Shown here in pieces: positions 1 through 52,403 of a stretch of 64,000 nt of DNA. The notes below the pieces were generated by a model, which worked only from the letters and a program-made list of their open reading frames with translations, did no database searches and was not told the DNA's origin. Source of the DNA: an uncultured Gammaproteobacteria bacterium (GTDB lineage: Bacteria > Patescibacteriota > Patescibacteriia > Magasanikbacterales > JBBTQS01); the NCBI GenBank assembly GCA_965230935.1, contig OZ246400.1, positions 438,359 to 502,358 on the forward strand, given 5' to 3'. The stretch's first letter is position 1. Every line of letters begins with the position of its first letter. The position numbers and the translations under genes are program-made.

Positions 1-330
1 GTCCAGCCACCACCAGGCGTTGTACCCGATGACGTTGCGACGCCACCAGATGATCACTTCGGTTTCCGACTGGCGAAACCACGGGATGTTACCTTGGAGC
101 AGCTTCAAAACGCACAAAACTGCCAACGCCAGGCTGAGCACCAGGTACAGGCTGAGCGTCACCAGCAGGAAGCCGGAGAACACATCTGCGCCCTCAAGGT
201 GCAAGTAATGGCCTGCCCAAATCGGTGACACGACATGGAAAAACCCCAGCACCAATCCCACCAAACGCACTCCCAGCCACGGAATCGGCCGGTACTGCTG
301 CAGCTTTGCAAGCTGATCTTTGCTCGTCAT
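1..330 (-). CDS. Partial CDS (N-terminal part; gene continues past window start): multi-TM membrane protein, high-GC (about 58-60%) unlike surroundings
   Basis: ATG at 330..328 (rc) preceded by AGGAGG 6 nt upstream; translation MTSKDQLAKLQQYRPIPWLGVRLVGLVLGFF... hydrophobic; open to window edge. The listed + strand ORFs 20..208 and 225..419 are antisense to it. Confidence 0.45.
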   Translation of the reverse strand, partial: MTSKDQLAKLQQYRPIPWLGVRLVGLVLGFFHVVSPIWAGHYLHLEGADVFSGFLLVTLSLYLVLSLALAVLCVLKLLQGNIPWFRQSETEVIIWWRRNVIGYNAWWWLD

Positions 331-444
331 ACCGGCCTCCTTTGGCTCAAGTAACGTCAATGAACATAGGCGCAAGCGCCCACACCAGAGAATCTGGTGT
401 ACAGGCTTTTGTACCATAGCATCAATATCCTGTCAACACAGGCT

Positions 445-472
445 TGACGAGCTGAGCACGACACGATATACT
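445..472 (+). promoter_or_regulatory. Sigma70-like promoter TTGACG-16nt-TATACT; predicted TSS lies only a few nt before the nrnA ATG (near-leaderless)
   Basis: TTGACG at 445..450, TATACT at 467..472, ATG at 481. Confidence 0.4.
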
Positions 473-480
473 ACATCGCT

Positions 481-1503
481 ATGCATAGACTAGCTGAAAA
501 AATTAATGAACACCTAGATACACGTGCCAAACACGTGTTGTTAGTGTCGCATCCTCGTCCTGATGGCGACACCTTGAGCGCGGCCTGCGCGTTTATGCAA
601 TATTTAAAGACGATCAACACGCAACATCTGCCGTTTTGTACTACGCCAATTTCAGCTGAATTTTTGTTTTTGCCAGAAGCGCACAAAGTAACATTTGATA
701 CAAATATTTTTGAAGAGCATGAATTTGACACGATTTGTGTGTTCGACACCGGTGACCTTAAATATGCTGGCATCGAAGAAATTTTAGAGAAACTTCCGTA
801 CAAGCCGGTAATCATCAATTTTGATCATCATCTGACCAACACCAACTATGGTGATTACAACTTTGTCATTCCCACGGCCGCCTCAACCACTGAAGTGCTC
901 TATACCTACTTCAATCACATCGGTGTTCATATTGATGAACCAACAGCAACGTGTTTGCTTACCGGCCTCATCACTGACACGGGCAACTTTTCAAACCAAG
1001 CAACCACCACTGAGAGTGTTGGGATTGCCGCAGATCTTCTACGTCGTGGCGCGCGGTTTGATACAATCTTAAATAAAACATTTCGCAATAAAAGTGTGCG
1101 CGGCTTGCACATTTGGGGAACTATGCTTTCCCGACTCACGCGCAACGAAGAACATGACATTAGCTATACCTACGTCACGCGCGAGGACTTGCGAGAAGCA
1201 CAAGTTGGTGATGAAGAAATTGACGGTCTGTCTAACTTTTTAAACTCCCTAGGAGAAGGGAAAGCAATTTTGGTTATGCGAGAGATGGAAGACGGAAGTG
1301 TCAAAGGAAGTATGCGAACCACACATGATGACGTTGATGTAAGTGCATGGGCAGTTAAACTTGGTGGAGGCGGACACAAGAAAGCCGCCGGTTTTACCAT
1401 TGCCAATGCGCGAATTGCCACTAGCGATGATGCATGGAATCTGTTTGCCCCGGCATTGACTGACACCACAACTAGCGAAAATGGACAAAGTGCGGTAGAG
1501 TAA
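481..1503 (+). CDS. nrnA: DHH/DHHA1 family phosphoesterase, NrnA-like bifunctional oligoribonuclease/pAp phosphatase
   Basis: [16 protein letters not shown] motif, C-terminal GGGGH (DHHA1) motif; 340 aa. Confidence 0.75.
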
Positions 1504-1516
1504 ATTTGTATCTATA

Positions 1517-2116
1517 TTGCATATGACAGAAACCAAATCACAACTCCTTATCCCAACAGTGATCGAAAAAACACACCATGGTGAGCGTGCATACGATATT
1601 TACTCACGACTACTTAAAGATCGAATCATCTTTTTAGGTACGGCAATTAACGACACCGTAGCGAACACCGTGATCGCGCAATTACTCTTCTTGGATTCGC
1701 AAGATAAAACCCAAGATATTAAACTCTATATCAATTCTCCCGGAGGATCGGTAACTTCTGGTATGGCAATCTATGACACCATGCAATATATTAAAGCCGA
1801 TGTCTCAACTATCTGTATTGGAATGGCAGCCAGCATGTCTGCAACGCTTTTGGCCGCTGGACATAAAGGCAAGCGGTTTATCCTGCCCAATGCTGAGGTG
1901 ATGATTCACCAGGTATTAGGGGGCGCAGAAGGACAAGCAAGTGATATTAAAATCCATGCTGAGCGAATTATTCGCATGAAAGAGCATTTGAACCAAATTT
2001 TGGCTGATTTGACCGGTCAGCAGCTTACTAAAGTGCAGCAAGACACTGACCGAGACAACTTTATGAGCGCTCAGGAGGCAGTGGACTACGGGCTGGTTGA
2101 TAGCATTATTTCTTAG
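1517..2116 (+). CDS. clpP: ATP-dependent Clp protease proteolytic subunit ClpP
   Basis: [19 protein letters not shown], catalytic Ser (GMAASM) and His (MIHQ) context; 199 aa (alternative start at 1523). Confidence 0.9.
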
Positions 2117-2146
2117 ATTTTTCCCTGATTTTGCGGTATTCTTGAC

Positions 2147-2169
2147 AAAAAAATACTACCATGGTAGTA
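2147..2169 (-). terminator. Hairpin (16-bp perfect palindrome TACTACCATGGTAGTA) followed on the minus strand by a U-run; possible terminator in the convergent clpP/VanW-like intergenic region
   Basis: a-run 2147..2153 then palindrome 2154..2169; also overlaps a TTGACA-17-TAGTAT promoter-like arrangement on the + strand. Confidence 0.3.
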
Positions 2170-4374: not shown

Positions 4375-4376
4375 AG

Positions 4377-7075: not shown

Positions 7076-7129
7076 ATGAACTGTAAAAAGTATATCATAT
7101 TGTTGACAAACAGCCCACATTGGAGTAGG

Positions 7130-7290
7130 CTACACGTTACCGAACACGGCCTCTTGCCGTGGGGTGTGACGCGCCGGCAGGCGTGAAGGAGGAGAAGCCA
7201 TGGGCACCCCCCATGACGAGCATGCGCAGGAGCGCATCGCTCACAACTGCGGTTTGACCGTAGTCACGACGGCGTACCAGCGCGGTCTTT
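7130..7290 (+). other. Short high-GC patch carrying a strong SD (GAAGGAGGAG) plus ATG (7200) and about 29 high-GC codons that then run into host-like AT-rich DNA; likely remnant 5' end of an acquired gene
   Basis: local GC clearly above flanks; ORF 7200..7400 begins MGTPHDEHAQERIAHNCGLTVVTTAYQRG in GC-rich DNA then continues in AT-rich sequence. Confidence 0.3.
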
Positions 7291-7316
7291 GCATTTTAAG
7301 CATGATTCTGTATGAT
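7289..7316 (+). promoter_or_regulatory. Sigma70-like promoter TTGCAT-16-TATGAT upstream of 7348 gene
   Basis: hexamers at 7289..7294 and 7311..7316. Confidence 0.35.
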
Positions 7317-12424: not shown

Positions 12425-12522
12425 AGTACCCCCAGCTTACCACTGGTTGACATGCAGTGCAAAATGGTGTATTTTGGGGCCACCATGCGGCAAACCAAAG
12501 ACCAAAGAGGAGGGCTACACGC

Positions 12523-13506: not shown

Positions 13507-13567
13507 CACAACACCACAACGCAACCCCTCCTTACCAGGAGCGGGTTTTGCAATTACCGCTGTTTCT

Positions 13568-13620: not shown

Positions 13621-13641
13621 TTAAATCACCACCAACACCCA

Positions 13642-18590: not shown

Positions 18591-18728
18591 AGTGAGGATA
18601 TTGTACCGCTAATCGTTGGCTGGGGCAATGGTTGTGTGCGCATACGTATTAAATCCTGTTTCTTGACAAAACCACTAATTTAAATTAAAAAGGAGCTTAC
18701 CGGCAATCACGCCGAGGAGGAGGATTCC

Positions 18729-19531: not shown

Positions 19532-19563
19532 CCTCTCCCACCAACAAACACACAACCAGAAAA

Positions 19564-34933: not shown

Positions 34934-34994
34934 AATCAAAACGACCCGACTGTTTGTCGAGCCATCCTGGTTGTGTTGTGTAATGTAGTGCGGC

Positions 34995-35551: not shown

Positions 35552-35671
35552 GGTTGTTTCTCTCCTCTTACTCTTTTTGATGTAAAGACTTCATGTCTAA
35601 ACGAAAACAGCGAGCGTTCCTCATGTAACCCGCTGGAAAAAGTATACTAATATTATAAAAAAAGTCAAGTA

Positions 35672-40221: not shown

Positions 40222-40845
40222 TTATCCACGCGCCAGCGCCACATACCAAATCTGCTTTGTCCCAGCCCCAACAAGGGCTTGGGCGCATGCCTGGATTGTA
40301 GCTCCGGTAGTGATGACATCATCCACAAGCACAACTTTTTCTGGAGCGATCCCTCGACACACAAACGCCTCATGCACATTACCCAACCGCGCGGATCGAG
40401 AAAGTTGCGCTTGAGCTTTTGTGTGTCGAGTCCGAAACAACACATCGGTCCTTACCTCCAATTGAGTTACCTCTCCCACTGCATGTGCTACAATTTCTGC
40501 TTGATTAAAATCACGCACCACATATCGTTTTGCATGCAATGGAACCGGCACTACCGCAGGACGCAAGGCATTAATCTCTTGCGTCACCACTTCTCCCAAT
40601 GCATGACCAAGTCGACGTGCAATAGATTCAATAAACCCGAACTTAATCTCATGAATCGCCCGGCGCACTATCGGGTGTGCATGTGTAGCATACGTCAACA
40701 TACGCGCATCAACTTGCACATCTCGCACCTGTACCACACACGCATTACAAATACCACTTCCCTCTTGGTTACACCCAACACAAAAAAGTGGAAAAAGTGA
40801 ATCCAAAACTATATTCTTGAATTGTGCGATGATTCCTAAGCGCAC
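40222..40845 (-). CDS. comF: ComF family protein (ComFC-type phosphoribosyltransferase, competence)
   Basis: N-terminal CxxC...CxxC zinc finger (CVGCNQEGSGICNAC), PRTase motif VLVDDVITTGAT; start overlaps upstream gene stop by 1 nt. Confidence 0.7.
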   Translation of the reverse strand: MRLGIIAQFKNIVLDSLFPLFCVGCNQEGSGICNACVVQVRDVQVDARMLTYATHAHPIVRRAIHEIKFGFIESIARRLGHALGEVVTQEINALRPAVVPVPLHAKRYVVRDFNQAEIVAHAVGEVTQLEVRTDVLFRTRHTKAQAQLSRSARLGNVHEAFVCRGIAPEKVVLVDDVITTGATIQACAQALVGAGTKQIWYVALARG

Positions 40846-41528
40846 TACAGTACCCCTTCTTCACCCCAATCAACACGATTCACCAACCAATCATCTCCTG
40901 ATTTAAGTACACTTACCTCGGCTCGTTGATATACCGTATCACTTTGTCCGAGCGCTGTTTTTTCTTTTTGGGTAGTAACCACAATCAGTGCTGATTCAGC
41001 ATCCAAGTCCAATACCTCTGATGAAAGTGGATTTACTTTAATCGAGAGCGTCTGATCACTTGGAGTCCCACCACTCGCCACAACACCTTTTGCCCAATTG
41101 CGCATATCAACCGTCATCAGTGGATACAAGGCTTTCAAATTTGTATAATTACTATCTGCAGAATAACTTCCCATACGCTCCACAAATGATTCAGCAAACT
41201 TTCCTAAGCTAATCTGCAACTCTTCATCAGTGCTCAAATCCACAGGATCACTGGACAACGTCGGTGTAGTATTATTTTCAGCAATCTCCTCAACTAGCTC
41301 TTCAGTAGTGACGTCAGATTCCAACGTTCGTACTCCAACCTCTGCTGCTTCTATATCAGTGCTGGTATCAAACGCTGATCGATCCGGTTGCTCTGGTGTA
41401 ACCGTGACATCAGTTTCCGGTGGCGCACTCTCAGGACTTGAACTACTCAGCACACGCCATAATTGCATCCCAACCAAAATCACGACGATAAGCACTATTA
41501 CCCCAATTGCTATTTTTTTTGTTTGCAT
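40845..41528 (-). CDS. TM-anchored extracytoplasmic protein in T4SS-like operon (VirB8/TcpC-like position; unassigned)
   Basis: N-terminal TM IAIGVIVLIVVILVGM, Ser/Thr/acidic linker, globular C-domain; 227 aa. Confidence 0.35.
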   Translation of the reverse strand: MQTKKIAIGVIVLIVVILVGMQLWRVLSSSSPESAPPETDVTVTPEQPDRSAFDTSTDIEAAEVGVRTLESDVTTEELVEEIAENNTTPTLSSDPVDLSTDEELQISLGKFAESFVERMGSYSADSNYTNLKALYPLMTVDMRNWAKGVVASGGTPSDQTLSIKVNPLSSEVLDLDAESALIVVTTQKEKTALGQSDTVYQRAEVSVLKSGDDWLVNRVDWGEEGVL

Positions 41529-41540
41529 ATGTTTTTGTGA

Positions 41541-43430
41541 TTAAACTTCTCCACCTTCACCTTCTTGCGCTGCTTGGAGCTCTTTACGCGCCTCTTCAAT
41601 CTCAATCAGCTGACGTGGGTCAGTAGTAATAATTTGATCTTCAGTATACGAAGCGACGATTTTAATAGCCGCATGACGCGAACCGGCAAAAAAGATTCCT
41701 TCACCAACACCGCCCTCGAGCAACAAATACTTCTCCCCTTCAGTGAGCAAAAACGTCTTTTGCACCAAATCAATTGATGCCGGAGATTGTCGCAATAGCA
41801 ACTGGAGCTGCGAGTTCGTCACAATGGCTTGACCGTAGACCGAAGTCAAAAAGTCGTTTACATCCTGGGTAATGGTAGTCACGCCCAAGAAATACTTTCG
41901 AGCGCGCTTGGCCAGCGCGAAGATGAACTTGGCTGAATCTTCGTGTTGCATCAACCACCACGCCTCATCAATCACGAGAATACGTCGCTTTACCTCTGAT
42001 CGTACCACATTCCAAATAAAGTTAATAATGTTGTACACCGCGATTGGACGCAGTTCATCTTCCAGATCACGAACACTAAAAATCATCAATCCGTTATTAA
42101 TATCAACGGTTGTCGGTGAGTTGAGCAACCCGGAAAACGTACCGGTGGTATATTTTTCAAGTTTCGTAATCAAACTATCACTCCCTTCCATACCACTTAA
42201 GATATCGGCCAAATCTTGCATAATAGGAGGTTCAACTGTAGCAATATCTGCATCAGGAGTAATATCCTTTTTGGCATAGGTCTCAAGCAAGGCACGATCC
42301 AGCATAGAATCTTCCTCAGGAGTCAGATTCCCTAACATAATCCGCATCATGCCCTTAACCGTAATCACGGCACTACGAATAATATCTTCCATGTCAATTT
42401 GCTGCCCAACCGGACGTGGCAAATCAAACGGGTTAACTTTAGACTCCGAAGCAAGTGAGATATTAATGTACGTTCCACCAACTGCTTCTGCCAAATGCTT
42501 ATACTCCATCTCCGGATCAATAATGATCACATCAGTCCCAAGCATCAAACTCCGCAAAACCTCAAGCTTAATCGCATAACTTTTTCCAGCACCTGAAGTC
42601 GCAAATACGACTGAGTTTGCATTTTGCAATGAGAACCGATCAAACAAAATCAGACTGTTATTATGGCGGTTAATCCCGTACAAAATTCCATTCTCTGAGG
42701 TTAGCTCAGCTGAGATAAACGGAAATGATGCAGCAATTGGTGAGCTGTTCATATTAAAGGTCACCATCAACTCATCATTACCAAGTGGCAACGTTGAGTT
42801 AAATCCTTGCTCTGCTTGATAAAATACGCGCTTGGAATAAATCAACTTAGCACCAAACACATTTTCAACATCTCCGGAAATACGATCTAACTCATCCTTG
42901 CTCTTTGCATAAATCGTAATGTACAGCGCGAATTGGAAAAATTTTTCAATCCCTTGGGTGAGGGCATCACGCAATTGCTCGATATCGCGCAAAGCAGTCT
43001 CACGAATCGGATCGCGGGGCGCGCCCTTCTCAGCATCGGAGAGAATCTGCGCTTCCATAACACCGGATTGATTTTTGAGCTGTTTTAATACCACGGCAGT
43101 TTTCACCGGATAAAAGAACATGGCAATATCCAGTGTGTTGGAAAAATTAATAATCGGCGCAAACCACCCAACGGTAATATAGCGTGGATATGCCACCACA
43201 AACATGGTACGCACAAACGTATCCCCCAAGAGCACGTGCGAGGGGTTGATTTTCATGGCTGCCGGCGCAATCAAATCACGGATGTTCACCACCCCGGTAC
43301 GAAAGACCTTTTCCTCGGCCAACGTCCCCAAAGCCTCACGAGTATCTTTTGCGCGTTTTGATTCTTGTTTTTGTGCCTTGGCTTTCAGCCCTTCGGTCGC
43401 TTGTTTTTGTGAAATTGGTTTAAAGGCCAT
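41541..43430 (-). CDS. virB4: VirB4/TrbE/PrgJ-family type IV secretion ATPase
   Basis: Walker A FATSGAGKSY, DPEMEY, Walker B ILVIDEAWWL, GVTTITQ; 629 aa. Confidence 0.8.
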   Translation of the reverse strand: MAFKPISQKQATEGLKAKAQKQESKRAKDTREALGTLAEEKVFRTGVVNIRDLIAPAAMKINPSHVLLGDTFVRTMFVVAYPRYITVGWFAPIINFSNTLDIAMFFYPVKTAVVLKQLKNQSGVMEAQILSDAEKGAPRDPIRETALRDIEQLRDALTQGIEKFFQFALYITIYAKSKDELDRISGDVENVFGAKLIYSKRVFYQAEQGFNSTLPLGNDELMVTFNMNSSPIAASFPFISAELTSENGILYGINRHNNSLILFDRFSLQNANSVVFATSGAGKSYAIKLEVLRSLMLGTDVIIIDPEMEYKHLAEAVGGTYINISLASESKVNPFDLPRPVGQQIDMEDIIRSAVITVKGMMRIMLGNLTPEEDSMLDRALLETYAKKDITPDADIATVEPPIMQDLADILSGMEGSDSLITKLEKYTTGTFSGLLNSPTTVDINNGLMIFSVRDLEDELRPIAVYNIINFIWNVVRSEVKRRILVIDEAWWLMQHEDSAKFIFALAKRARKYFLGVTTITQDVNDFLTSVYGQAIVTNSQLQLLLRQSPASIDLVQKTFLLTEGEKYLLLEGGVGEGIFFAGSRHAAIKIVASYTEDQIITTDPRQLIEIEEARKELQAAQEGEGGEV

Positions 43431-43432
43431 AC

Positions 43433-44131
43433 CTATTGTTGGTCAAGTCGAATCTTACTTACCTCACCCATCTTTTCACTCATAAATACATCAGGATTGT
43501 ACACATTGTAATACAGCTCGATCAGGCTTTGGGTATCGAGGCGCGCAGTCTCCAAACTCATCCCACCCAGACCAGAGATTACTTTGCGCAATCGCATGTC
43601 GAGCTCTTCTTTTCGCTTGCGAAACTTTTCACTGCGCAACTTAAGGGTGAACGCTGGTTTTGCCGCTTCTTTGAGTCGGGTAAAGTATCCTTTACGCTTG
43701 TTGGACAACGGATCATACGGCACCACCACAAAAAATCGTTTACTCATAATCTCACCAAGATCAACCAGCTCTTTTACAAACGATCGGTAATCAGCGATTT
43801 GCATCTTGAGTAATTCATTGGGCTGCTCTTTTTCGGCTTCTGATAAACGATTCATGTACCCTTCAATGTTGAGTTTTCGTGATTGAATCACAATCTGCAA
43901 CGGAAAATCCAAACTATTTAAAAATCCAACATACGAGCTGATCAGTGCATTTTGCTCATCTTCTGATTTGAGCGAAAAGTTAACACTGGAAACCAACAAC
44001 ACCGCGCGCAGTGTTCCGTCTTTGAGTACCACAACATCATCTTTGATCTCAGCAATATCCAAAAACTTCTGCGTAGTAGTTTTAATTGTCTTCTTGGCCA
44101 ATTTTTTTGACTGCATACTATTGCTGATCAT
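43433..44131 (-). CDS. Hypothetical protein in T4SS-like operon (232 aa, soluble, Lys-rich)
   Basis: no motif recognised; tightly packed between VirB3-like and VirB4. Confidence 0.45.
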   Translation of the reverse strand: MISNSMQSKKLAKKTIKTTTQKFLDIAEIKDDVVVLKDGTLRAVLLVSSVNFSLKSEDEQNALISSYVGFLNSLDFPLQIVIQSRKLNIEGYMNRLSEAEKEQPNELLKMQIADYRSFVKELVDLGEIMSKRFFVVVPYDPLSNKRKGYFTRLKEAAKPAFTLKLRSEKFRKRKEELDMRLRKVISGLGGMSLETARLDTQSLIELYYNVYNPDVFMSEKMGEVSKIRLDQQ

Positions 44132-44573
44132 CAGGGCGATACACCCCGCCAGTGTTTACCACAAGTGATAAATCGGAAAGTCGACTCTTGCTTGCAGGCT
44201 TTTTTTCTACGATCTGCGCTCGCTGCGCCTGCAACTCTGCTTCGCGCTTTTCTTTTTTTGTTGGCTTTGGTGGTTGTATTGTATCATCTTTACCCTTCAT
44301 CCACACGCGGATTCCCGGCTTACGCATGGTTTGAAAAAAATTCAGGATAAAATAGTGAAACCGCTGACCGCGCACTTTGACAAACGCCAGGACAATGGCA
44401 AAAAAAATCAACGGAATTCCAGTGGTTAAAAACAGTGCAAAGTCAAAGAGTTTAAAAAAAATAAACTCAAACATACCAGCTACCAATAAAATCATAAACT
44501 GGCGGCCGGTGATAGGCCCGATAATCTTTGCTTCCTCATCAATAAATTGTGGAATCACAAATCGATCAGCCAT
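44118..44573 (-). CDS. Small 2-TM hairpin membrane protein, VirB3/PrgI-like by size, topology and position immediately upstream of VirB4
   Basis: FMILLVAGMFEFIFFKLFDFALFLTTGIPLIFFAIVLAFV hydrophobic hairpin; 151 aa. Confidence 0.4.
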   Translation of the reverse strand: MADRFVIPQFIDEEAKIIGPITGRQFMILLVAGMFEFIFFKLFDFALFLTTGIPLIFFAIVLAFVKVRGQRFHYFILNFFQTMRKPGIRVWMKGKDDTIQPPKPTKKEKREAELQAQRAQIVEKKPASKSRLSDLSLVVNTGGVYRPDDQQ

Positions 44574-44574
44574 A

Positions 44575-46284
44575 CTACCAACTCTCTAATACTTGGTTAC
44601 CGGCAATAATTTGAAACAACTCGTCATCATCAAGTACTTGTTTGCGCGCTTTTACCTGCTCTTTAACAAACTCGCCAATGGATTTGCGCTCTTGCAATGC
44701 CTCTACAATCATTTTCTCGTACAACTGATACGGCTCACTGCGACGCCACGCATAAATCGCTTGAATTTTATCAGGATAGGATTCTTCACCAATACGTGCG
44801 ATGGCAGACAGAATTTTTTCCATGCGAATCTCAGGCTGCGGCGAGCTGCGACGAAAATCGACCAACCGCAATTGCTCGATCTCTTGCACCGGTCCGGTGA
44901 GTGCCTGGCCGGCTGGACGCACATCAGTCATAGTCGGCTCTGGAGCTTGCGGTGCTTTTACCGGCACATCAGCTACTGCAGATGGTGGTGCCGTTTTTCC
45001 AGACACTGCGGCAACTTTTGGCGCTTGTAACCCACCGGAGATTGCGGCATTACCCCCCGGAATCTCAAAGTGTGGTGCCGTGCGCAATGTATCCTCATGT
45101 GTAGCACCGATTTCATGTTCGGGATTGAGATCTGGTTTGCGCTGTTCTGATTTCTTTTGCGTTTTCTTAGCTCTTCCTACGACTTTGGTAAATGTTGTAT
45201 CAGCAGTAGCCTGAGCTGCTTCTTTCTTTTTGGGCGCTGCCTCTTTCTTCTTTTGTACTAGAGCATCTGCTGTTTTATACTTGGCCATTGCCTCTTCAAC
45301 AATCTCTACAATTGCCATGGCAAGCTCAGCGCTCAACGCGGCTCCTCCTTGATCAGCGGCGCGCATAAGTGTCTCACTCAGGGCACGCGTATCACGTGCA
45401 CCGCCAACACGAGAGCTGATCACTGATCGAAGTGATTCAGGATCTACATCACGAATCGTATGATTAATCTCTGTGAGTATTTCATCAAGTAATTGAGTGC
45501 GTTGTGGTTGATGTGCTCCGGCGCCTGCTCCAAGCGTTTTGCGCATCGCGCGCTTTGCTTTTTTTACATCATGCGCAATTGCTTTTTCATCCTCTGACTT
45601 GCCCTTACGTCGTCGGCGTACGGTGACATTCGAGACATCAACAAGACCATCGCGCTTTGCCACACGCATACTATTGGTACCAGCAAACGCTTGTTTAATA
45701 GCAAGAGCTGCACTGTGCGCATCATCTTCTGAAAGTTGCAGCTTCTCTTGCAGTGTTTGCATAACCTGCTGTTCATTAAACGACGAGCGGCCTGCTTTGA
45801 CCACTTGTTGCGCTAATTCAATAAACGCGGCCTTGGTTCGTGGATTTTTCACTGATGGCGGGCAAAGCGATGCAATCTGTGCGGTCATCTGTGTATCGGA
45901 AAACGCTGGGATACTAAAATGCTTTCCGGTTGAGTCATACGTTTTGGTTGCTGCCTTTGCATCCCACTTGGCAACCTCTTTGTGTACCGGCCCTAAGTAA
46001 TCCCGTGCCGGGAAAAATAACCGCATACCAATTTCAGCTGCCAGTGGTGTTGTTTGCGCCACTGACTTTCCAAGCGCTTTAGCTAAGGTGCTTGGAAATT
46101 GCTTCAGTGATGTCTTACCCAAAAACACTTCAAGAACCGTGAGCAGCATTGCCCGTTGTTGCTCTGTTTTATCTAGTCCATAATGCGCGAAGAGTGACTC
46201 ATTAACTTGAGTCACTTCTACGCTACGCAAATATGCTTGAACATTTTGCGGGAGCTGCTTAAGTGTAGCAAACACAATCGGCAT
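44575..46284 (-). CDS. Hypothetical 569-aa soluble protein in T4SS-like operon (Ala/Lys-rich, no P-loop)
   Basis: no TM, no Walker motif; sits between VirB6-like and VirB3-like genes. Confidence 0.45.
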   Translation of the reverse strand: MPIVFATLKQLPQNVQAYLRSVEVTQVNESLFAHYGLDKTEQQRAMLLTVLEVFLGKTSLKQFPSTLAKALGKSVAQTTPLAAEIGMRLFFPARDYLGPVHKEVAKWDAKAATKTYDSTGKHFSIPAFSDTQMTAQIASLCPPSVKNPRTKAAFIELAQQVVKAGRSSFNEQQVMQTLQEKLQLSEDDAHSAALAIKQAFAGTNSMRVAKRDGLVDVSNVTVRRRRKGKSEDEKAIAHDVKKAKRAMRKTLGAGAGAHQPQRTQLLDEILTEINHTIRDVDPESLRSVISSRVGGARDTRALSETLMRAADQGGAALSAELAMAIVEIVEEAMAKYKTADALVQKKKEAAPKKKEAAQATADTTFTKVVGRAKKTQKKSEQRKPDLNPEHEIGATHEDTLRTAPHFEIPGGNAAISGGLQAPKVAAVSGKTAPPSAVADVPVKAPQAPEPTMTDVRPAGQALTGPVQEIEQLRLVDFRRSSPQPEIRMEKILSAIARIGEESYPDKIQAIYAWRRSEPYQLYEKMIVEALQERKSIGEFVKEQVKARKQVLDDDELFQIIAGNQVLESW

Positions 46285-46301
46285 ATAGATAGGATGTACG
46301 A

Positions 46302-49154
46302 TTACTCATCAAACTGAGCAAAACTTCCAGCACTTGGCGGCTCTGATGCTTTGAACTCTGCAACCACTTCCGGCTTACTCTTTTCAATTGCGCTGAGCAC
46401 TTGTTGCATGCTTACTCCTGCTTGTCCGGCATTGCCTTTACCAATGGCCTTGACCATTGCCTTTTGCAACACCTTCAATGCTTTGACCGTTCCAACACTA
46501 TCGCTAAATCCTTGTTGTGCTGTAGGTGAGCTATTGATTGCAGACATGGCAGCATCTCCTTGTCCAGCAGCGATCAACTTACCAAGATTTTCGCCCACAC
46601 TTGCGGCATCTGGTTTTGCTCCACCGACCGCCTTTTCAAATACGTCTTGGAAATCTTTTGGATTGGTGACATGGACACTGAGTACGCCACTTTTCTCCTT
46701 GTCATCTTTCTCTTCACCCTCTTCTTTGCCACCTGATGCTGGTTTTTCAGTCTTCGGTGCCGCCTTTGGTTCGGCCTTTGGCGCACCTTTCACACCTGCT
46801 GCTTCAGTTGGTTCAGCTGCTTCTTCTGGTTTTTTCCCTGGTTTGCGACGTGATCCTACCCCACTTGTTGGACGTTTTGCTTTGCCAGTAGGTGGCGCCT
46901 CTTCAGCTGCACCCTCCTCTGGTGCAGCAGCAGCCGCATCAGCTGGTGGTGGAGTTGGTTTTGGTCGACGACGAGCTCCTGATCCTACACCACTGGTTGG
47001 TCGTTTTGCTTTGCCAGCTGGCGGCTCAGTAGGCTCAGGTGGTTCTGGACGATCATGTGAGCCGGCATCAACATCTTGGTCTTGGCCAGGACGTTGGGTT
47101 GGAGCACCACCGCCACCGGCAGCTCCTCCACCGCCTGCGGCGCCTCCTCCTGCACCACCTGCGCCAGCTGCACCACCACCGGCAGCTCCGCCTCCTCCTG
47201 CACCACCTGCACCGCCGCCAGGACCTGGTGCCGGACGACCAGCAGCACTGCCATGGAATCGGGTGTTCCATGCGTCTCTTTCTGCTCTTGAGTCATCACC
47301 TTTGTTTCGTTTCATGTACTCTTTCTCCATAGCAGCAAAGTCAACAACCTTATCGTATGTATCATCATTTACACCAGGAGCAAGTTGATTCTGATGTGCA
47401 GGAGTTGATCCAGCAGGGAACTTGCGACCTGCCTCTGTCAAAAGTTCGGTATCATCAAAGTCAGTGTAGTCTTTTTGCTTATCAGCAACCGCCCCACGAA
47501 TCTCTTTACGCGCACCATCAGTCGGATTAGTGGTTCCGCGCTCTTGTACTTGTCGCTTGTTGTATGCCTCTTTAACATCTGACTGTTTCTCATCACCACT
47601 CTTAAAGAAGAAACCTCCAACTGTACCGAAATCTTTTGCACCTTTGCGCGCAGAATAAATCTGAGACCCGTCTTTTAAGAATGGAATTTGTGCTTTTCCT
47701 GATGCCACATCTTTTGATGCAGACTTCAAAAAGTTAACCCCTTTATTAACCGTATTCCCAACAGTCTGCTGAGTAAGCTGTTTAGTATAGCCATATCCTT
47801 TATCCACTCCAGCACGCGCATATCCGGCAATCTTCGCGGCAACAGTAGCCGCAGCCCCGCTCATCCCACCGGCATATTTAATTCCTCCAATGAGCACAAC
47901 ACTACTCACAATAAAGGCAGCCATGTTATTCCAGGTCGAAATCTCAGTATTCGTAATACTTGGTGTGTCTTTAAATGCTTTCCCTTCTCCACCAAGTGCA
48001 TCAACGACCACTTTTACGGAATCAGAATTCATCAAATCAAAAGCAGCCTCATTTTGCTGAACCGAAGTTAAGGCAAGCCAGACAAAAAATACCAAGATTG
48101 GACCAACCGTAATTTGTTTCACCAAATGATCTACCCACTTACTAAAGTATTGTCTAGTTGCAGGAAGCACGGCAAACAAAAATGCCAAAGGAGATAGAAT
48201 AATCAAAATCCAAATGCCAACAATTCGAAAAACAATCACCAGCAACAAGGTAAGCGCGATCGTCAACGCAAAAGTAGAAATAATTAACGTCAAGCTCAAC
48301 CCAATCCAGTTTTGAATAAAGTCATAACTTACAAACGACGCTGCGATTTGGGTGCCAATTTCTGCAAGTGCGCTCCCTGTTGCTTCACCTTCGGCCTTTC
48401 CAACAGTGTCCTGAACGGCAATAGCCGCTTGATCGATCAATGGTTTAAGCTTGAGCCAAGAATCAATACGCAATAAGTTAACAAAGTTTCTTCCTGCACT
48501 GTCATATAAGGCACTGGAGAATGTCAACATGACCACTTGTGCAGCATCAAGAAGTAGTCCAATAATGGTTCTACTGAAGTTCACCAAAAAGATTGCCAGG
48601 ATCAATCGTGGAATCAATTGTTGATATTGATATGAAGCAATCCGAAAGACCGTTGCAAAAGCGATCACCAACAATACCACCACAAAAAACATGTTTGCTA
48701 CATCCCGGATTGTTGCCCAACCGCTATTAACAAACTCATTATCCAAAAAGTTATTGTACTGGATCATCAAGATAAACGTATTCCATGACCAAATCAGCAC
48801 CCCATTTACCAATTGACTAAACGATTGAATAATAATGTCAAAAAGCAAAAAGAACACATAGAGCATGAAACCTTCGCCAGCCAAACCAACAGCACCTGAC
48901 GCCAAACCACCGAGCAATGCTGCTCCGGTCGCCCCTAAAAACTTTCCAATCTTGGCAACTTTTACCCCTTCAGAATAGTCAGCAACATCACTGTTGAGCA
49001 CCACTGATGTATCTGTTGCGGTGTATGGCACATTGACTGCGGCTTGTGCCTGCGCCATGCCAAGCGAACCAAACAATGAAGACAAGGTAAATACAAAAAG
49101 ACACGCGCCCACAATCGCTTTTCTTAATGAAAGATGTCTATATATGCTTTGCAT
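46302..49154 (-). CDS. Polytopic membrane protein, VirB6/PrgH/TcpH-like by topology and operon position, with long Gly/Ala- and Pro-rich low-complexity region and charged C-terminal domain
   Basis: signal peptide + at least 6 TM in first 450 aa; PAPGPGGGAGGAGGGGAAGGG... stretch; 950 aa. Confidence 0.45.
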   Translation of the reverse strand: MQSIYRHLSLRKAIVGACLFVFTLSSLFGSLGMAQAQAAVNVPYTATDTSVVLNSDVADYSEGVKVAKIGKFLGATGAALLGGLASGAVGLAGEGFMLYVFFLLFDIIIQSFSQLVNGVLIWSWNTFILMIQYNNFLDNEFVNSGWATIRDVANMFFVVVLLVIAFATVFRIASYQYQQLIPRLILAIFLVNFSRTIIGLLLDAAQVVMLTFSSALYDSAGRNFVNLLRIDSWLKLKPLIDQAAIAVQDTVGKAEGEATGSALAEIGTQIAASFVSYDFIQNWIGLSLTLIISTFALTIALTLLLVIVFRIVGIWILIILSPLAFLFAVLPATRQYFSKWVDHLVKQITVGPILVFFVWLALTSVQQNEAAFDLMNSDSVKVVVDALGGEGKAFKDTPSITNTEISTWNNMAAFIVSSVVLIGGIKYAGGMSGAAATVAAKIAGYARAGVDKGYGYTKQLTQQTVGNTVNKGVNFLKSASKDVASGKAQIPFLKDGSQIYSARKGAKDFGTVGGFFFKSGDEKQSDVKEAYNKRQVQERGTTNPTDGARKEIRGAVADKQKDYTDFDDTELLTEAGRKFPAGSTPAHQNQLAPGVNDDTYDKVVDFAAMEKEYMKRNKGDDSRAERDAWNTRFHGSAAGRPAPGPGGGAGGAGGGGAAGGGAAGAGGAGGGAAGGGGAAGGGGAPTQRPGQDQDVDAGSHDRPEPPEPTEPPAGKAKRPTSGVGSGARRRPKPTPPPADAAAAAPEEGAAEEAPPTGKAKRPTSGVGSRRKPGKKPEEAAEPTEAAGVKGAPKAEPKAAPKTEKPASGGKEEGEEKDDKEKSGVLSVHVTNPKDFQDVFEKAVGGAKPDAASVGENLGKLIAAGQGDAAMSAINSSPTAQQGFSDSVGTVKALKVLQKAMVKAIGKGNAGQAGVSMQQVLSAIEKSKPEVVAEFKASEPPSAGSFAQFDE
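47040..47260. repeat. GC-rich low-complexity tandem-like repeats (GGn/GCn codons) encoding Gly/Ala/Pro tract inside VirB6-like gene
   Basis: ccaccgcc / gcaccacc / ggagc iterations; generates long spurious antisense ORF 46351..47388. Confidence 0.5.
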
Positions 49155-49206: not shown

Positions 49207-49248
49207 TGTAAAAAAAGAAGAACCCCACAATCGTGATGATCGTGGGGG
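49207..49248 (-). terminator. Terminator for SPFH-like gene: CA-rich tract then CCCCAC...GTGGGG hairpin then U-run (minus strand)
   Basis: rc reads ...CACAACAACGGGGACCCCCACGATCATCACGATTGTGGGGTTCTTCTTTTTTT. Confidence 0.45.
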
Positions 49249-49290
49249 TCCCCGTTGTTGTGACTCGGCGAAGAAGCGTTCGAAGAGTGG

Positions 49291-50226
49291 CTAGCTCCTC
49301 TTTTTCTTCTTGCGTGAGCCGCCGCCCTTGCCCCGGAACGCCGCCATGAGCTTCATGCGGTTCTCCAGCGAGATGTCGGCCCACTTCTCGTCGGTCATCA
49401 TCTCGGCGAAGGCTTTGAAGTCGGCCATCTTCTCCGGCGTCATGTCCCCCACGTGAGCCGGAGTGGTGGAGCGAGGCTTCGCGGTCTGCTTGTGCTCGGT
49501 CTGCACCGCCACCACGCGAAACCCGCAGGTCTTGGGCAGTGGATCACGGCCGTCCACCACACCCGGATCCGGGTCGCTGGTGTTGCAGCCACTGACCACG
49601 GCGGCCTTGAGCGTGTCGTCCATGGCCTGGAGCTCGTCCAGCGTCGGCTTCTTGTCCAGACCGTCGATGAACCGCTTGAGCTCGAACGCCGCCTTACGCC
49701 AGGCCGCGTCCACGATGGCCGCCTTGCCGTTGTCGCCCTTCTTGACGTCGGCGTGGTTCATCAGGTACTTGGCGCACTGCGCCATGGCCGGACCATCACC
49801 TGTGTTGAGCCGCACGCTGAACTTGATCGCCGCCGTAACGTTGGACCCGTCGTGCGCCACGTACTTGATGTGCGCCAGGCAGGCGAACATCCAGTTGTTG
49901 GGACACACGAAGGTCTGGTGACGCAACATCGCGCCGCCAGGCACGAAGTGCTTGCCCCGACCACCGGTGTTGCTCTGGAACGGCCGCACCAGGTCGCCAT
50001 CGCTGTCCACCGCGATCCCCATCTTGCCCGACGGGATGATGAACTCGGACTTGAAGTAGTAGCTGATCGCCAGGATGATCCCGAAGATCGCAATGCCGTA
50101 CCCGGGGACGTCCGGGCTGATCCAGCCCTTCCAGGCGCCAAGCACTGCTGCGATCGCCGTCACGACGAACGCGGTGAAGTAGCTGCGCCAGTCCCATCCC
50201 TCTTTCTTGCTCAAGATGCTCTGCAT
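49291..50226 (-). CDS. High-GC membrane protein with SPFH/band-7-like core (tentative), 2 N-terminal TM, basic tail
   Basis: IIPSGKMGIAVDSDGDLVRPFQSNTGGRGKHFVPGGAMLRHQ...AAIKFSVRLNTGDGPAMAQ resembles SPFH beta-rich core; GKGGGSRKKKKRS tail; 311 aa. Confidence 0.35.
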   Translation of the reverse strand: MQSILSKKEGWDWRSYFTAFVVTAIAAVLGAWKGWISPDVPGYGIAIFGIILAISYYFKSEFIIPSGKMGIAVDSDGDLVRPFQSNTGGRGKHFVPGGAMLRHQTFVCPNNWMFACLAHIKYVAHDGSNVTAAIKFSVRLNTGDGPAMAQCAKYLMNHADVKKGDNGKAAIVDAAWRKAAFELKRFIDGLDKKPTLDELQAMDDTLKAAVVSGCNTSDPDPGVVDGRDPLPKTCGFRVVAVQTEHKQTAKPRSTTPAHVGDMTPEKMADFKAFAEMMTDEKWADISLENRMKLMAAFRGKGGGSRKKKKRS

Positions 50227-50682
50227 CTTATCCTCCCTCTGTGTGTGGTGTGTAGTGAATCTTCTTCGCCGATCTGCATTGTTTAAAGAGCTGCTTCTGC
50301 AGCAAACAATGAAGTTTGTCGCTTCTGCAACCGTATATCATATCATAATTTGGTGTTTTTGTCAATATTAATTTAGCTAAAATAAGATAAAATCCTAAAA
50401 TAAGTCACAAACTATGCACAGAAAAGCCTTTGTTTGCTGGGTTTTCTATTGACAGAGGGGTACTGTTTTGCTACTGTAAAAGTGACTAAATGTGTCAAAT
50501 AGTTCTTTGTAAAAAGTTGCAAAATCGCACCGGAATGAGGAGTGCAAGCTCATCACTCTAGCGCGATTTTGCAACCAAGAGGGAAAGCCAACCACTTGTA
50601 GTCGTTCTGCTGGAGGTCCCGGGTGGGGCCTGCGACAGGAGTTGCGCCAGGCCACACTCAGACCTATCGGGGGAAAGAAACG

Positions 50683-51531
50683 ATGAAGACCAGGACCCTT
50701 TCGACCATGGCCGTGCTGGCGGCTCTGGTGCTCGCGGGCTGCGCCGCTGAGGCGCCGACCGACGGCAACATGACGCCGGACCAGCAGATCGACCAAAAGA
50801 CGTTCACCGTGGAGGTGGTCGTCGAGCACGCCCAGAATCGTGTGGGCAACGCCGAGGTCACGGCGATGACGCACGGCGCGGTGGCGTACACCGACCACAA
50901 CGGGGTGGCGACGTTCGACAGTCTGCCGGCCGGGCCGGAGACGTTCAAGGTGGACGCGCCGACCATCGAGAAGCCGCTGTACGTGGACGTGAACGTGGGC
51001 GAGGACGACGCGCCGATCACGACCGAGACCGTCACGATCGACCCGGCCGACGCCACCGACACGCCGACGCCGAGTGACGACACCTCGCCCATCGCCGGGC
51101 TGGATCCGGAGCTGGACGAGTACGTCAAGATCGGGTGGGCCACGTGGCTGAGCTTCGACGCCGAAGGCGCGCAAATGGCCGGCGGTGGGCCGAACGACTG
51201 GTACGAGATCGGGTACAACGCCAAGCAGGGCGCGTACAAGATCTACGACCAGGGTCATCCGTTCAGCACCAACTACATCGACACGATCGCCTGCTTCGTG
51301 GAGGTCAAGTCGGACTGCGGTGCTGAGGCGTGCCTGTCGTGCGAGGACCTGATGGTCGGCAACAAGGGGTTCTACTACTCCACCATCGGCACGGTGAGCG
51401 AGAACGGCCACAAGTTCGAGTTTAGCTCAACCAAGACCACGGGAAGTGGGACCGATCCGGTCGGAACAGACGTGTTCACCCTGGAGACCGACCCGGACGG
51501 GAACTACTTCGAGGGCTACGGCGACGAGTAG
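50683..51531 (+). CDS. High-GC secreted lipoprotein A (lipobox LAGC) with N-terminal Thr/Asp/Pro-rich region and 141-aa C-terminal 4-Cys domain shared with lipoprotein B
   Basis: MKTRTLSTMAVLAALVLAGCAAEA; start reassigned to ATG 50683. Confidence 0.5.
   Translation: MKTRTLSTMAVLAALVLAGCAAEAPTDGNMTPDQQIDQKTFTVEVVVEHAQNRVGNAEVTAMTHGAVAYTDHNGVATFDSLPAGPETFKVDAPTIEKPLYVDVNVGEDDAPITTETVTIDPADATDTPTPSDDTSPIAGLDPELDEYVKIGWATWLSFDAEGAQMAGGGPNDWYEIGYNAKQGAYKIYDQGHPFSTNYIDTIACFVEVKSDCGAEACLSCEDLMVGNKGFYYSTIGTVSENGHKFEFSSTKTTGSGTDPVGTDVFTLETDPDGNYFEGYGDE
51101..51525 (+). repeat. Direct repeat copy 1 (425 bp, identical to 51866..52290), encodes shared C-terminal domain
   Basis: read base-by-base against copy 2; identical protein-level ORFs also appear in all overlapping frames of the ORF track. 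Confidence 0.85.
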
Positions 51532-51585
51532 TCCCTGAAGACCTGGCCTGGTCAACTCCCTCACACAACTAACACACAACAAGAA

Positions 51586-51619
51586 AACCCCCAGCAGACT
51601 GCTGCGGGTGTTCTTTTTT
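51586..51619 (+). terminator. Rho-independent terminator CAGCAG-A-CTGCTG + T9 after lipoprotein A (preceded by CA-rich ACACAAC tract)
   Basis: perfect palindrome 51591..51603, T-run 51611..51619. Confidence 0.55.
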
Positions 51620-51628
51620 TAGTAAACT

Positions 51629-51657
51629 ATTGCATTTACAATCGCTTTTATCTACAA
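51629..51657 (+). promoter_or_regulatory. Sigma70-like promoter TTGCAT-17-TACAAT for lipoprotein B (AT-rich segment inside high-GC island)
   Basis: hexamers 51629..51634 and 51652..51657; AAGGAGG SD before ATG 51691. Confidence 0.4.
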
Positions 51658-51690
51658 TCACCTAAGGCACAGGCAAAGGAGGAAACAGCC

Positions 51691-52299
51691 ATGCCATACC
51701 GATATGCGATGGGCTTCGTGCTCATGATGCTCTTGAGCACCTGCGCAGACACGACGTCCAATGAGGATGGGCGTCCTCATGGACTGACCTCTGATCCCGG
51801 CCTGTTTACGAACGAAGACGCCCGACCATGGTCACCCAGCCTCACCGGCAATCCGATTGATGGCATGGATCCGGAGCTGGACGAGTACGTCAAGATCGGG
51901 TGGGCCACGTGGCTGAGCTTCGACGCCGAAGGCGCGCAAATGGCCGGCGGTGGGCCGAACGACTGGTACGAGATCGGGTACAACGCCAAGCAGGGCGCGT
52001 ACAAGATCTACGACCAGGGTCATCCGTTCAGCACCAACTACATCGACACGATCGCCTGCTTCGTGGAGGTCAAGTCGGACTGCGGTGCTGAGGCGTGCCT
52101 GTCGTGCGAGGACCTGATGGTCGGCAACAAGGGGTTCTACTACTCCACCATCGGCACGGTGAGCGAGAACGGCCACAAGTTCGAGTTTAGCTCAACCAAG
52201 ACCACGGGAAGTGGGACCGATCCGGTCGGAACAGACGTGTTCACCCTGGAGACCGACCCGGACGGGAACTACTTCGAGGGCTACGGCGACAACCAGTAG
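51691..52299 (+). CDS. High-GC secreted lipoprotein B (LLSTC lipobox-like) with the same 141-aa C-terminal 4-Cys domain
   Basis: MPYRYAMGFVLMMLLSTCADTT; perfect AAGGAGG SD; 202 aa. Confidence 0.5.
   Translation: MPYRYAMGFVLMMLLSTCADTTSNEDGRPHGLTSDPGLFTNEDARPWSPSLTGNPIDGMDPELDEYVKIGWATWLSFDAEGAQMAGGGPNDWYEIGYNAKQGAYKIYDQGHPFSTNYIDTIACFVEVKSDCGAEACLSCEDLMVGNKGFYYSTIGTVSENGHKFEFSSTKTTGSGTDPVGTDVFTLETDPDGNYFEGYGDNQ
51866..52290 (+). repeat. Direct repeat copy 2 (425 bp identical to 51101..51525); downstream about 80 bp also about 90% similar including terminator
   Basis: see copy 1. Confidence 0.85.
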
Positions 52300-52403
52300 T
52301 CCTTGAAGGCCTGGCCTGGTCAACTCCCTCACACAACCCAACACACAACAAGAAAACCCCAGCGAACTGCTGAGGGATTTCTTTTTTGTAAAGAGTTTTA
52401 TGA

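Follow-up and report, generated by a model that had tools for sequence, protein, structure and literature searches.

Orphan GC-rich gene islets of moron-like architecture, with a CACAAC box before their terminators, in a Patescibacteria chromosome

Phage 'morons' have reportedly been described by Juhala and Hendrix, and bacterial ORFans by Daubin and Ochman. Typical ORFans are AT-rich and short, and acquired DNA in general is usually AT-richer than its host. For Patescibacteria, both horizontal gene transfer (HGT) and genomic islands are on record (PMC12455944); our search of the literature returned general reports of HGT in these bacteria, and not the architecture set out below. Here we analyse a stretch of 64,000 nt (contig OZ246400.1, positions 438,359 to 502,358, assembly GCA_965230935.1; 'the window'), in which short GC-rich islets lie between conserved genes of a bacterial chromosome. 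The islets are predicted to be autonomous transcription units, the chromosomal equivalent of phage morons in architecture. Moron-like genomic islets are known as a kind; the present case stands out by the sequence box at their 3′ ends and by the composition of one of their two classes (class I).

The window has 46.6% GC. In a sliding-window analysis, GC-rich blocks lay at 1–330/340 (57–58% GC), 7101–7300 (60%), 12541–13520 (61%), 18781–19500 (61%), 34941–35580 (64.5%), 49221–50240 (63%), 50541–51600 (63%) and 51681–52360 (60%). An earlier note on this DNA, made from its letters alone, had picked out such patches by eye against a background of about 45%; its coordinates agree with ours, and all the patches that it listed fall at 57–64.5% GC. 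The islet units were labelled A to H, and two more, I83 and I86, lie in the ~9 kb fetched on each side by exact-protein look-ups (loci L083, before the window start, and L086), giving ~82 kb examined in all. Units A to H have 57–69% GC overall, with GC3 (GC content at the third codon position) of 0.65–0.92. The units are 0.2–1.6 kb long, are dispersed and not arrayed, and occupy ~8.6 kb of the 82 kb, or ~10%. Their flanks bear out the earlier description of intergenic insertions between housekeeping genes: a DHH phosphoesterase, ClpP, Na/Ca exchangers, TsaD, DnaE, PheS/PheT, an M50 protease, a MurD-like ligase, phosphoglucomutase, LemA, ClpB, RadA, RecG, smc and a cluster resembling a type IV secretion system (T4SS). 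Only B is near a tRNA gene (within ~550 bp). All compositional outliers of the window are GC-rich; its lowest 300-nt segment has 36.7% GC, and there are no AT-rich islands. One further GC-rich patch, at 46841–47300 (−; 62% GC), was rejected as an islet, being a Gly/Ala/Pro low-complexity segment within a native 950-aa open reading frame (ORF; 46302–49154).

The claimed contrast with the flanks extends to the third codon position. GC3 was 0.65–0.95 in islet ORFs and 0.32–0.48 in 26 native genes, and the two ranges are disjoint (Mann–Whitney p = 1e-6). Overall, the amino-acid composition of islet proteins is broadly like that of native proteins; the difference between the two sets of genes is therefore one of synonymous codon choice. 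Islet ORFs favour AAG, GAG, ATC, CTG and GGC codons, the synonymous share rising from 37% in native genes to 88% in islets for AAG, from 27% to 86% for ATC and from 12% to 45% for CTG. The blocks are real coding sequences and not structured RNAs, since they show a codon periodicity of GC3 > GC1 > GC2 and are filled by ORFs. The structured-RNA explanation was further rejected by the Rfam search, in which no family matched within an islet even at E ≤ 1. A codon bias linked to expression was rejected as well: the highly expressed GroEL, GroES and S16 genes are low in GC3 (0.32–0.39 for GroEL and S16).

An artefact, whether from chimeric joins, contaminating high-GC fragments or GC-rich structured RNA genes, was also considered, the first of these having been raised in the earlier note. 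The DNA comes from a metagenome, a low-GC genome has structured RNAs that are rich in GC, and one megahit contig ends inside an exact 424-bp repeat shared by islets G and H. That break is explained by the repeat itself. Elsewhere, contigs from megahit (ENA; samples ERR2281801 and ERR2281800) and from Logan match the window at 100% identity across A, B, E and F, with the flanks on both sides included, so that three assemblers or assemblies and two samples agree across the junctions checked. The islets are not misassembly. With a GC3 far above GC2, ORFs that fill the units, the negative Rfam result and promoter and terminator modules that fit the flanks, hardly any credence is left for an artefact of either type.

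The islet genes fall into two compositional classes. Class II genes (A, C, D1, D2, E1, E2 and I86) have GC3 values of 0.65–0.74, a lysine share K/(K+R) of 0.06–0.36 and a low FYMINK fraction (Phe, Tyr, Met, Ile, Asn and Lys), and they fit a gene at equilibrium in a ~62% GC genome at all three codon positions. Class I genes (F, G, H and I83) have higher GC3 values (0.83–0.95) with a GC1 of 0.53–0.58, a FYMINK fraction of 0.22–0.29 and K/(K+R) of 0.45–0.85, reflecting proteins that are Lys-rich, Arg-poor and native-like in their amino acids. Because of this split, one donor for all islets is unlikely. The leaders and spacers of islets have ~43% GC (intergenic region 50227–50682), and the rise in GC ends at the coding sequence (CDS).

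The units share a layout: a −35 box TTGACA, a ~17-nt spacer, a −10 box, a leader, a strong Shine–Dalgarno (SD) site, one or two ORFs, a tract of C and A residues, and a GC hairpin followed by a T-run. Promoters, terminators, and transmembrane (TM) and lipoprotein calls are consensus-level predictions throughout, the last two made by eye on the sequences. The predicted promoter has a perfect TTGACA in 7 of the 8 window units. The strong SD sites pointed out earlier do stand on the islet ORFs; native genes have them too. For C, D, E and F the terminator hairpins have fold z-scores of −4 to −6. Where the islet faces a convergent native gene (D/murD, H/2792-aa ORF, E/radA and I83/trmD), the terminator is bidirectional, with an A-tract and a T-tract, and units with a co-directional neighbour have the C/A tract as well (A, F, G and I86).

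The earlier note had described CA-rich tracts followed by a hairpin and T-run after the island ORFs, and the four tracts it quoted are where it placed them. When both strands of the window are ranked for tracts made up of C and A alone, the top four are the 3′ untranslated regions (UTRs) of H, G, D and C. As a heptamer, ACACAAC shows no excess in the window (14 copies against 13.2 expected), and 8 of its 14 copies lie within five islet 3′UTRs. In unbiased 5-mer counts, ACAAC and CACAA were present in 8/8 independent islet 3′UTRs, at ~21- to 27-fold enrichment (p ~1e-13). These eight cases leave out H, a near-duplicate, and include three outside the window (the 3′ end of A, I83 and I86), for which the box was predicted and then found. 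When the 3′UTRs are aligned, a CACAAC(C/A)AG-like box ends 3–7 nt upstream of the terminator stem, while the stems themselves differ between units and are unrelated in sequence. By eye, AAC before the stem and GTT after it are conserved in 6/9 units. In islets F and C, and likewise in a relative (locus L152), a C/A tract also directly precedes the SD.

The earlier note had named a CA-rich tract that is also common after native genes as a refuting result; this was not observed, and the box was specific to the islets. It preceded 9/9 islet terminators (H counted) and 0 of ~10 native ones (Fisher p = 1e-5), the latter including those of S16 (rpsP), KhpA and GroEL, the one upstream of GroES, and those of tRNA-Ser, tRNA-Arg and others. 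In other loci, such a hexamer lay within 22 nt upstream of only 5/232 terminator-like sites; the box was at 1/66 of these sites in loci from outside the Candidate Phyla Radiation (CPR), Actinomycetes included, and at 2/142 in other CPR loci. An origin of the tract in strand skew was rejected, as in E and F it lies on the minus strand and so opposes the skew of the window. Because it is found in both compositional classes and in relatives, and because the CDSs and 3′UTRs of G and H have different histories, the CACAAC box reads as a lineage-level 3′UTR element of the recipient's accessory units, not as a donor signature.

Two further tracts were seen near islets. An inverted copy of the box (GGTTGTGTGCGC) lies at 18628–18640 (+), just 5′ of the promoter of the M50 protease gene, to the left of islet D, and the native gene at 13642–13995 (−) has a mirror G/T-rich tract (TGGGTGTTGGTGGTG) at 13623–13645 (+), in its 3′UTR before its own strong terminator.

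Homologues of the islet proteins were sought in several collections. Islet F retrieved only itself, and H nothing, among 5.8 billion clusters in a word-indexed search, and C retrieved only itself in a full HMMER search of 1.84 billion representatives. By tblastn, ten islet proteins (H omitted as a near-duplicate of G) gave no match in 50,697 phage records and 72,556 plasmids. The islet proteins had no match in Pfam, NCBIfam, PADLOC or PHROGs; A, C, D1, F and G had none among PDB sequences, and F, G and C none in IMG/VR scans. For A, D, E and G the searches covered Pfam, NCBIfam, PADLOC, phages and plasmids, with PDB added for A, D1 and G and IMG/VR for G. Single-sequence AlphaFold2 models of F and C had a mean predicted confidence (pLDDT) of 40–41 and were unusable. 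In agreement with the earlier note, neither the Pfam results for the ORFs scanned over ~82 kb nor the precomputed gene calls showed an integrase or transposase domain.

The organism is a Patescibacteria (CPR) bacterium, as had been suspected: the best DnaE matches, among 185,579 species genomes and JGI metagenomes, are 56–57% identical and the close ones all Patescibacteria, and RadA is 65% identical to its best match; the best DnaE (57%) and RadA (65%) identities are both to Patescibacteria metagenome-assembled genomes, which is the basis of the assignment. Its genome is supposedly streamlined, at ~0.93 Mb (a source contig of 931 kb). The earlier note went on to propose a single high-GC donor lineage, by its own account speculatively the actinobacterial host of an epibiotic CPR cell, with the C/A tract and terminator as the donor's signature. 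Saccharibacteria do grow on Actinobacteria and are naturally competent (PMC11665869), and GC1, GC2 and GC3 of class II, with its K/(K+R), would be compatible with a ~62% GC genome. The rest of the evidence goes the other way. Searches of billions of sequences yielded no homologue of F, H or C, those of plasmids and phages none of ten proteins, and that of PDB none of five; there are two compositional classes, of which class I, Lys-rich and Arg-poor, looks neither like a ~72% GC actinobacterial proteome nor like an ameliorating import; the promoters are of the same perfect TTGACA type as native ones; and the box, all but missing at non-CPR terminator-like sites, recurs in relatives whose genomes differ in GC. 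Neither the common donor nor the actinobacterial one is upheld, and we regard this model as very improbable.

The placing of the box between insert and hairpin, at a fixed distance and after unrelated ORFs, suggests a different possibility, namely that box and hairpin form a recombination site, akin to an integron attC or an IS200/IS605-type hairpin, for cassettes mobilised in trans by a recombinase encoded elsewhere in the 931-kb genome. The AAC and GTT around the stem in 6/9 units, the lack of any local mobility gene in our results and, in relative L152, a leader and terminator retained around exchanged ORFs would all suit such cassettes. However, the hairpins are unrelated in sequence and so offer no common recognition structure, the sequences outside the stem do not pair as R′′ and R′ do in attC, each unit has its own promoter, the units are dispersed, and no integrase domain appeared in the Pfam results over ~82 kb. 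Nor does the 5′ junction have a counterpart of the box or a repeat: in 5-mer counts, islet 5′UTRs are enriched for the SD only, and flanking direct repeats were rejected on the same grounds. Mobilisation in trans thus merits little belief, about as little as the actinobacterial donor. Two specific elements were rejected. An attC site does not fit, as ACACAAC does not conform to RYYYAAC (R′′) and the flanks of the stem do not pair with R′ (GTTRRRY); nor does an IS200/IS605-type or MITE-like (miniature inverted-repeat) element, the stems being unrelated in sequence and only G and H sharing flanks, through duplication.

Islet E, which fills the radA–recG gap, was the one for which insertion between otherwise adjacent genes could be assessed; for B, C and D no comparison was possible, synteny of the dnaE region not being conserved in the closest genomes (57% identity). 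The loci of relatives used for this comparison were L145 and L147–L153. In these the block ClpB, thioredoxin, peptidase, RadA and RecG is conserved. In L151 and L153 radA and recG overlap by 9 nt and the slot is absent, whereas in the window the gap is 738 bp, equal to islet E. Different small ORFs, GC-elevated and on the recG strand, occupy the gap in L145, L147/148, L149/150 and L152, so that the slot is filled in four lineages of relatives, or five with the window. The GC of the gap against that of the genome in these relatives was ~60% vs 55%, 58% vs 51%, 59% vs 52% and 49% vs 36%, with sub-segments at 62–67%. The slot ORFs of L147 and L149 are homologous (E = 3e-6), and the remaining ones are unrelated. 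In relatives with 51–55% GC, CAAC(C/A)AG-like tracts adjoin unrelated GC-elevated ORFs: the slot unit of L145 has a CAAC-rich end (CCCAACACACGCAACAG ... GAACAAGAGA) and a stem, and the 148-aa unit of L147 likewise (CAAACAACAACTGAG and a stem). In L152 (7385–8262; 36% GC) there are two tandem slot units whose leaders are ~95% identical and whose terminators are 100% identical, around small Cys-containing ORFs that are unrelated and cannot be aligned; here the C/A tract (CACAAACAACCAGCAAGAGAGG) is in the 5′ leader, directly before the SD.

Islets G and H show a second form of turnover. Coding positions 51107–51530 and 51865–52288 are 100% identical over 424 bp, while the sequence just upstream and the 3′UTRs are only ~90% identical, a pattern that indicates a probable tandem duplication with gene conversion between the paralogues. 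A diversity-generating retroelement was rejected as its source: the repeat is fully identical and does not differ at adenines, and no reverse transcriptase domain was seen in the ORFs scanned.

The slot and the repeat both bear on the idea that the islets are an endogenous family of hypervariable cassettes, that is, long-resident units in recombination-prone slots that keep their regulatory modules (leader, CACAAC box and terminator) while the ORF bodies are swapped or diverge fast, the synonymous GC being raised by GC-biased gene conversion or selection on the mRNA and not by a GC-rich donor. Such cassettes would account for class I, with native-like amino acids at extreme GC3, for the fully identical G/H tract beside ~90% identical 3′UTRs, for the L152 units with their common leader and terminator, for a slot whose GC is elevated in five lineages and tracks genome GC, for the L147/L149 ORF that is homologous and still GC-elevated, and for a box found across both classes and in relatives. 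Biased conversion should, however, also lift neutral non-coding sites, and the GC rise stops at the CDS, with ~43% in leaders and spacers; the step in GC3 from 0.40 to 0.90–0.95 far exceeds the reportedly small differences due to biased conversion in bacteria. Class II fits an ordinary donor of ~62% GC at all codon positions, no leader is common to any two window islets, and the slot is absent in two relatives. This alternative is unlikely, though it deserves more weight than any other single rival.

The explanation that we favour, with about even confidence, is that these are moron-like, integrase-less accessory islets of one or two genes, derived from several sources, coding mostly for envelope proteins and lodged in gaps between conserved operons. 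The islets would have been acquired horizontally several times, from at least two compositionally different sources. No recombinase would be encoded by the element; most plausibly, DNA would have been taken up and then integrated by illegitimate or homology-facilitated recombination. Saccharibacteria have been shown to be naturally transformable and to conserve a T4SS, and competence machinery is enriched across Patescibacteria, among which HGT mostly takes place between Patescibacteria themselves (PMC11665869, PMC12455944); the T4SS-like cluster of the window can be cited alongside competence in support of uptake. Selection would then favour units well insulated by their terminator, which would shield the adjoining housekeeping genes from read-through. 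Later on, units would be replaced, duplicated in tandem and converted (G/H) or deleted (B), as suggested by the truncated B, the G/H conversion and the different slot occupants in relatives. The proteins are likely to have variable cell-surface or host-interface functions. By prediction, 7 of the 11 islet proteins are envelope proteins, with TM segments in A, D1, D2, F and I83 and lipoprotein signals in G and H.

The weakest step concerns the box, for which our best guess is an unstructured platform free of G and U that keeps the stem foldable, and/or a handle for an RNA-binding factor or a G/U-rich RNA. In predicted folding, the probability of the terminator stem fell in 8/9 units when the 20 nt before the stem were replaced with 20-mers from the unit's own CDS; the effect was individually significant for C, D and H, with a combined p = 0.003. 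This result is consistent with an unstructured spacer that may guard terminator folding after a GC-rich message.

Several points weigh against the favoured explanation. The insulation test is modest: any G-poor spacer would pass it, and the specificity of CACAAC is not accounted for. The class I islets are not accounted for by a simple import from a high-GC proteome. Lawrence–Ochman regressions reportedly lead one to expect a GC1 of ~71% at a GC3 of 0.90, and amelioration should lower GC3 first; since class I has a GC1 of 0.53–0.58 and its GC3 has not decayed, neither import nor amelioration explains its composition. Promoters and terminators look native, the foreign look being limited to the ORF body. 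A donor was found for no islet, though the protein collection includes assemblies from the same samples, in which a recent co-occurring donor should leave a homologue. Lastly, the slot GC that tracks genome GC in relatives could reflect an intrinsic GC offset instead of import. A further proposal is an integrase-less 'expression-slot' system of this Patescibacteria family, in which regulatory frames (promoter and leader before the ORF, CACAAC box and terminator after it) persist and the ORF between them is swapped or rewritten. Such a system would keep supplying fixed gaps between core operons with GC3-rich orphan envelope proteins, with the box as recombination junction or shared post-transcriptional control site and the extreme GC3, at native-like amino acids, as a by-product of exchange. 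We consider this distinctly unlikely, though less so than the actinobacterial or trans-mobilised models.

The individual units are as follows. Islet A (1–436, −) has only its 5′ part in the window, with promoter TTGACA-17-TACAAA at 436–408, SD AAAGGAGG and a CDS start at 330. The full gene, of 441–470 aa (GC 0.59, GC3 0.74), continues outside the window (L083 8525–9937) and encodes a predicted membrane protein that is Trp-rich, with N-terminal TM helices; at its 3′ end in L083 are AAACACAATTCAAACAACCACTT and a CCCCGC...GCGGGG hairpin, the box being read as AAACACAATTCAAACAACCAC plus the hairpin. Islet B (7103–7290, +) has promoter TTGACA-17-TAGGCT at 7103–7131, a GC-rich leader, SD GAAGGAGGAG and, from an ATG at 7200, ~30 GC-rich codons; its GC is 0.60–0.65 and its fold z-score −2.3. 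It leads straight into the next native gene's promoter, with neither CA box nor terminator in 7103–7290, and is read as a probable 3′-truncated remnant unit, a small leader being an alternative. Islet C (12447–13549, +) has its promoter at 12447–12475, SD AGAGGAGGG and a CDS at 12523–13506 (327 aa, GC3 0.73, no TM segment predicted), with the C/A tract (ACACAACACCACAACGCAA) at 13501–13528 and the hairpin and T-run at 13525–13549.

Two islets hold two genes each, joined by a TGATG overlap. In islet D (18663–19605, +), promoter TTGACA-17-TAAAAA (18663–18691) and SD GAGGAGGAGG precede D1 (18729–19385; 218 aa, N-terminal TM segment) and D2 (19385–19531; 48 aa, C-terminal TM segment); a C/A tract (CAACAAACACACAACCAGAAAA) at 19535–19563 leads into the bidirectional terminator (19564–19605) common to the convergent murD. 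Islet E (34934–35671, −), the entire radA–recG gap, has its promoter at 35668–35641, SD AAGAGGAGAG, E1 (35294–35551; 85 aa) and E2 (34995–35294; 99 aa), both Arg-rich with no predicted TM segment, then C/A tract ACATTACACAACACAACCAGG at 34986–34966 and the terminator at 34965–34934.

The class I units of the window lie side by side. Islet F (49210–50365, −) is read from promoter TTGACA-17-TATGAT (50365–50337) through a 110-nt leader ending in CACACCACACACAGAGGGAGG; its CDS (49291–50226; 311 aa, GC3 0.90, K/(K+R) 0.67) has two predicted N-terminal TM helices and a Lys-rich tail, and is followed by box TCACAACAAC at 49263–49254 and the terminator and T-run at 49253–49210. Islet G (50449–51617, +) has promoter TTGACA-17-TACTGT (50449–50477) and a structured leader of ~205 nt (50478–50682), in which we noted a hairpin of 13 bp with perfect pairing (GUUGCAAAAUCGC...GCGAUUUUGCAAC) and, close to the SD, another GC-rich stem (fold z-score −4.9). 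No Rfam family matches 50478–50682, which may be a regulatory leader. The CDS (50683–51531; 282 aa, GC3 0.92, Arg 0.7%) combines a lipoprotein signal (LAGC) with an Ig-like domain and, at the C terminus, a Cys-rich one; after it come the C/A tract (CACACAACTAACACACAACAAGAAAA; 51562–51587) and the terminator (51588–51617). Islet H (51630–52391, +) has promoter TTGCAT-17-TACAAT (51630–51658), SD AAAGGAGGAA and a CDS at 51691–52299 (202 aa) with a lipoprotein signal (LSTC) and the same C-terminal domain as G, followed by a C/A tract at 52326–52356 and the bidirectional terminator (52357–52391) common to the convergent 2792-aa ORF. Outside the window, I83 (L083 1440–1832; GC3 0.95) encodes a predicted 130-aa membrane protein and ends in CAACATCACAACCACAA and a hairpin, and I86 (L086 1267–1536) encodes an 89-aa protein and ends in CATCACAACAAGA and a hairpin.

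Two further GC-rich (0.59–0.62) units headed by promoters lie between rpsP and khpA (L083 4615–5525, −), ~4–5 kb before the window. The second has a fold z-score of −4.8 and many local hairpins, and ends in ACAACACAC, a hairpin and a T-run. No convincing ORF was seen in L083 4615–5525, and neither Rfam nor ARAGORN gave a match; these units may be novel non-coding RNAs or decayed islets. Farther out, a 16S rRNA gene (its 5′ 911 nt) is at L083 1–927 (−), ~8.6 kb before the window start (Rfam SSU_rRNA_bacteria, 842 bits).

The T4SS-like cluster, of the Gram-positive type, occupies 40845–49154 (−) and includes a VirB4/TraG-like ATPase (41541–43430, −), a PrgI-like protein (44118–44573, −) and the 950-aa polytopic membrane protein at 46302–49154 (−). 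Islets F–H come after it, and then the 2792-aa ORF (52404–60782, −), which has no Pfam match. The same VirB4-like and TraC-like genes are also present in relatives L152 and L153, and a T4SS of the Gram-positive type is conserved in Saccharibacteria (PMC11665869).

In a supposedly streamlined genome of <1 Mb, ~10% of 82 kb is thus made up of orphan single-gene units with foreign codon usage that are predicted to encode mostly envelope proteins. As the organism is probably attached to a host, the islets are prime candidates for a variable host-interface or defence repertoire. They go beyond ordinary HGT islands in that the outliers are all GC-richer, in the position-specific CACAAC box before unrelated terminators and in the extreme GC3 of class I genes with proteins of a low-GC type. 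If the box were a common regulatory or recombination handle, it would serve as an easy sequence label by which to find the accessory genes of these uncultured bacteria, and could be put to the test in the genetic system now available for Saccharibacteria.

The islets resemble several known systems in part. Like integron cassettes, they consist of unrelated ORFs, behind each of which stand a conserved short motif and an imperfect palindrome, with no mobility gene of their own; unlike them, they have their own promoters, form no array, show unrelated stems and no R′′/R′ pairing, and have no IntI in ~82 kb, and in contrast to attC the palindrome is predicted to be a bona fide terminator with a T-run. 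The bidirectional terminators common to an islet and a convergent native gene have the usual A-tract, GC stem and T-tract, but the C/A tract extends past the A-tract and is also present before co-directional genes. C/A-rich elements of enterobacterial mRNAs, reportedly described by Sharma et al. in 2007 as translational enhancers and as targets of the G/U-rich seeds of GcvB and DapZ, are likewise single-stranded C/A-only tracts, such as ACACAAC, in untranslated regions. Unlike GcvB targets, the box is at the 3′ end beside the terminator and not at the ribosome-binding site, and neither Hfq nor a G/U-rich small RNA partner was identified; by analogy, the box may instead be a site common to the units at which a protein or a G/U-rich RNA binds. 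The islets are like ORFans and like the genomic islands or 'islets' of Hsiao et al. 2005, so far as that work is cited in PMC12455944, as compositionally deviant, lineage-restricted genes in variable slots. They differ from the former in being GC3-rich and up to 441–470 aa long, and from a classical genomic island in unit size (0.2–1.6 kb vs >10 kb), in showing no integrase among the ORFs scanned, and in having neither a tRNA target nor flanking repeats. Unlike phage morons, the islets lie in a housekeeping chromosome, have no PHROG, phage or IMG/VR matches, are GC-richer than their host and share the CACAAC box before the terminator. They are nonetheless like morons in being extra genes between genes that are adjacent in relatives (as could be tested for E), in having their own predicted promoter and factor-independent terminator, in a base composition unlike that of their neighbours, and in their predicted products, since morons too often encode membrane proteins or lipoproteins.

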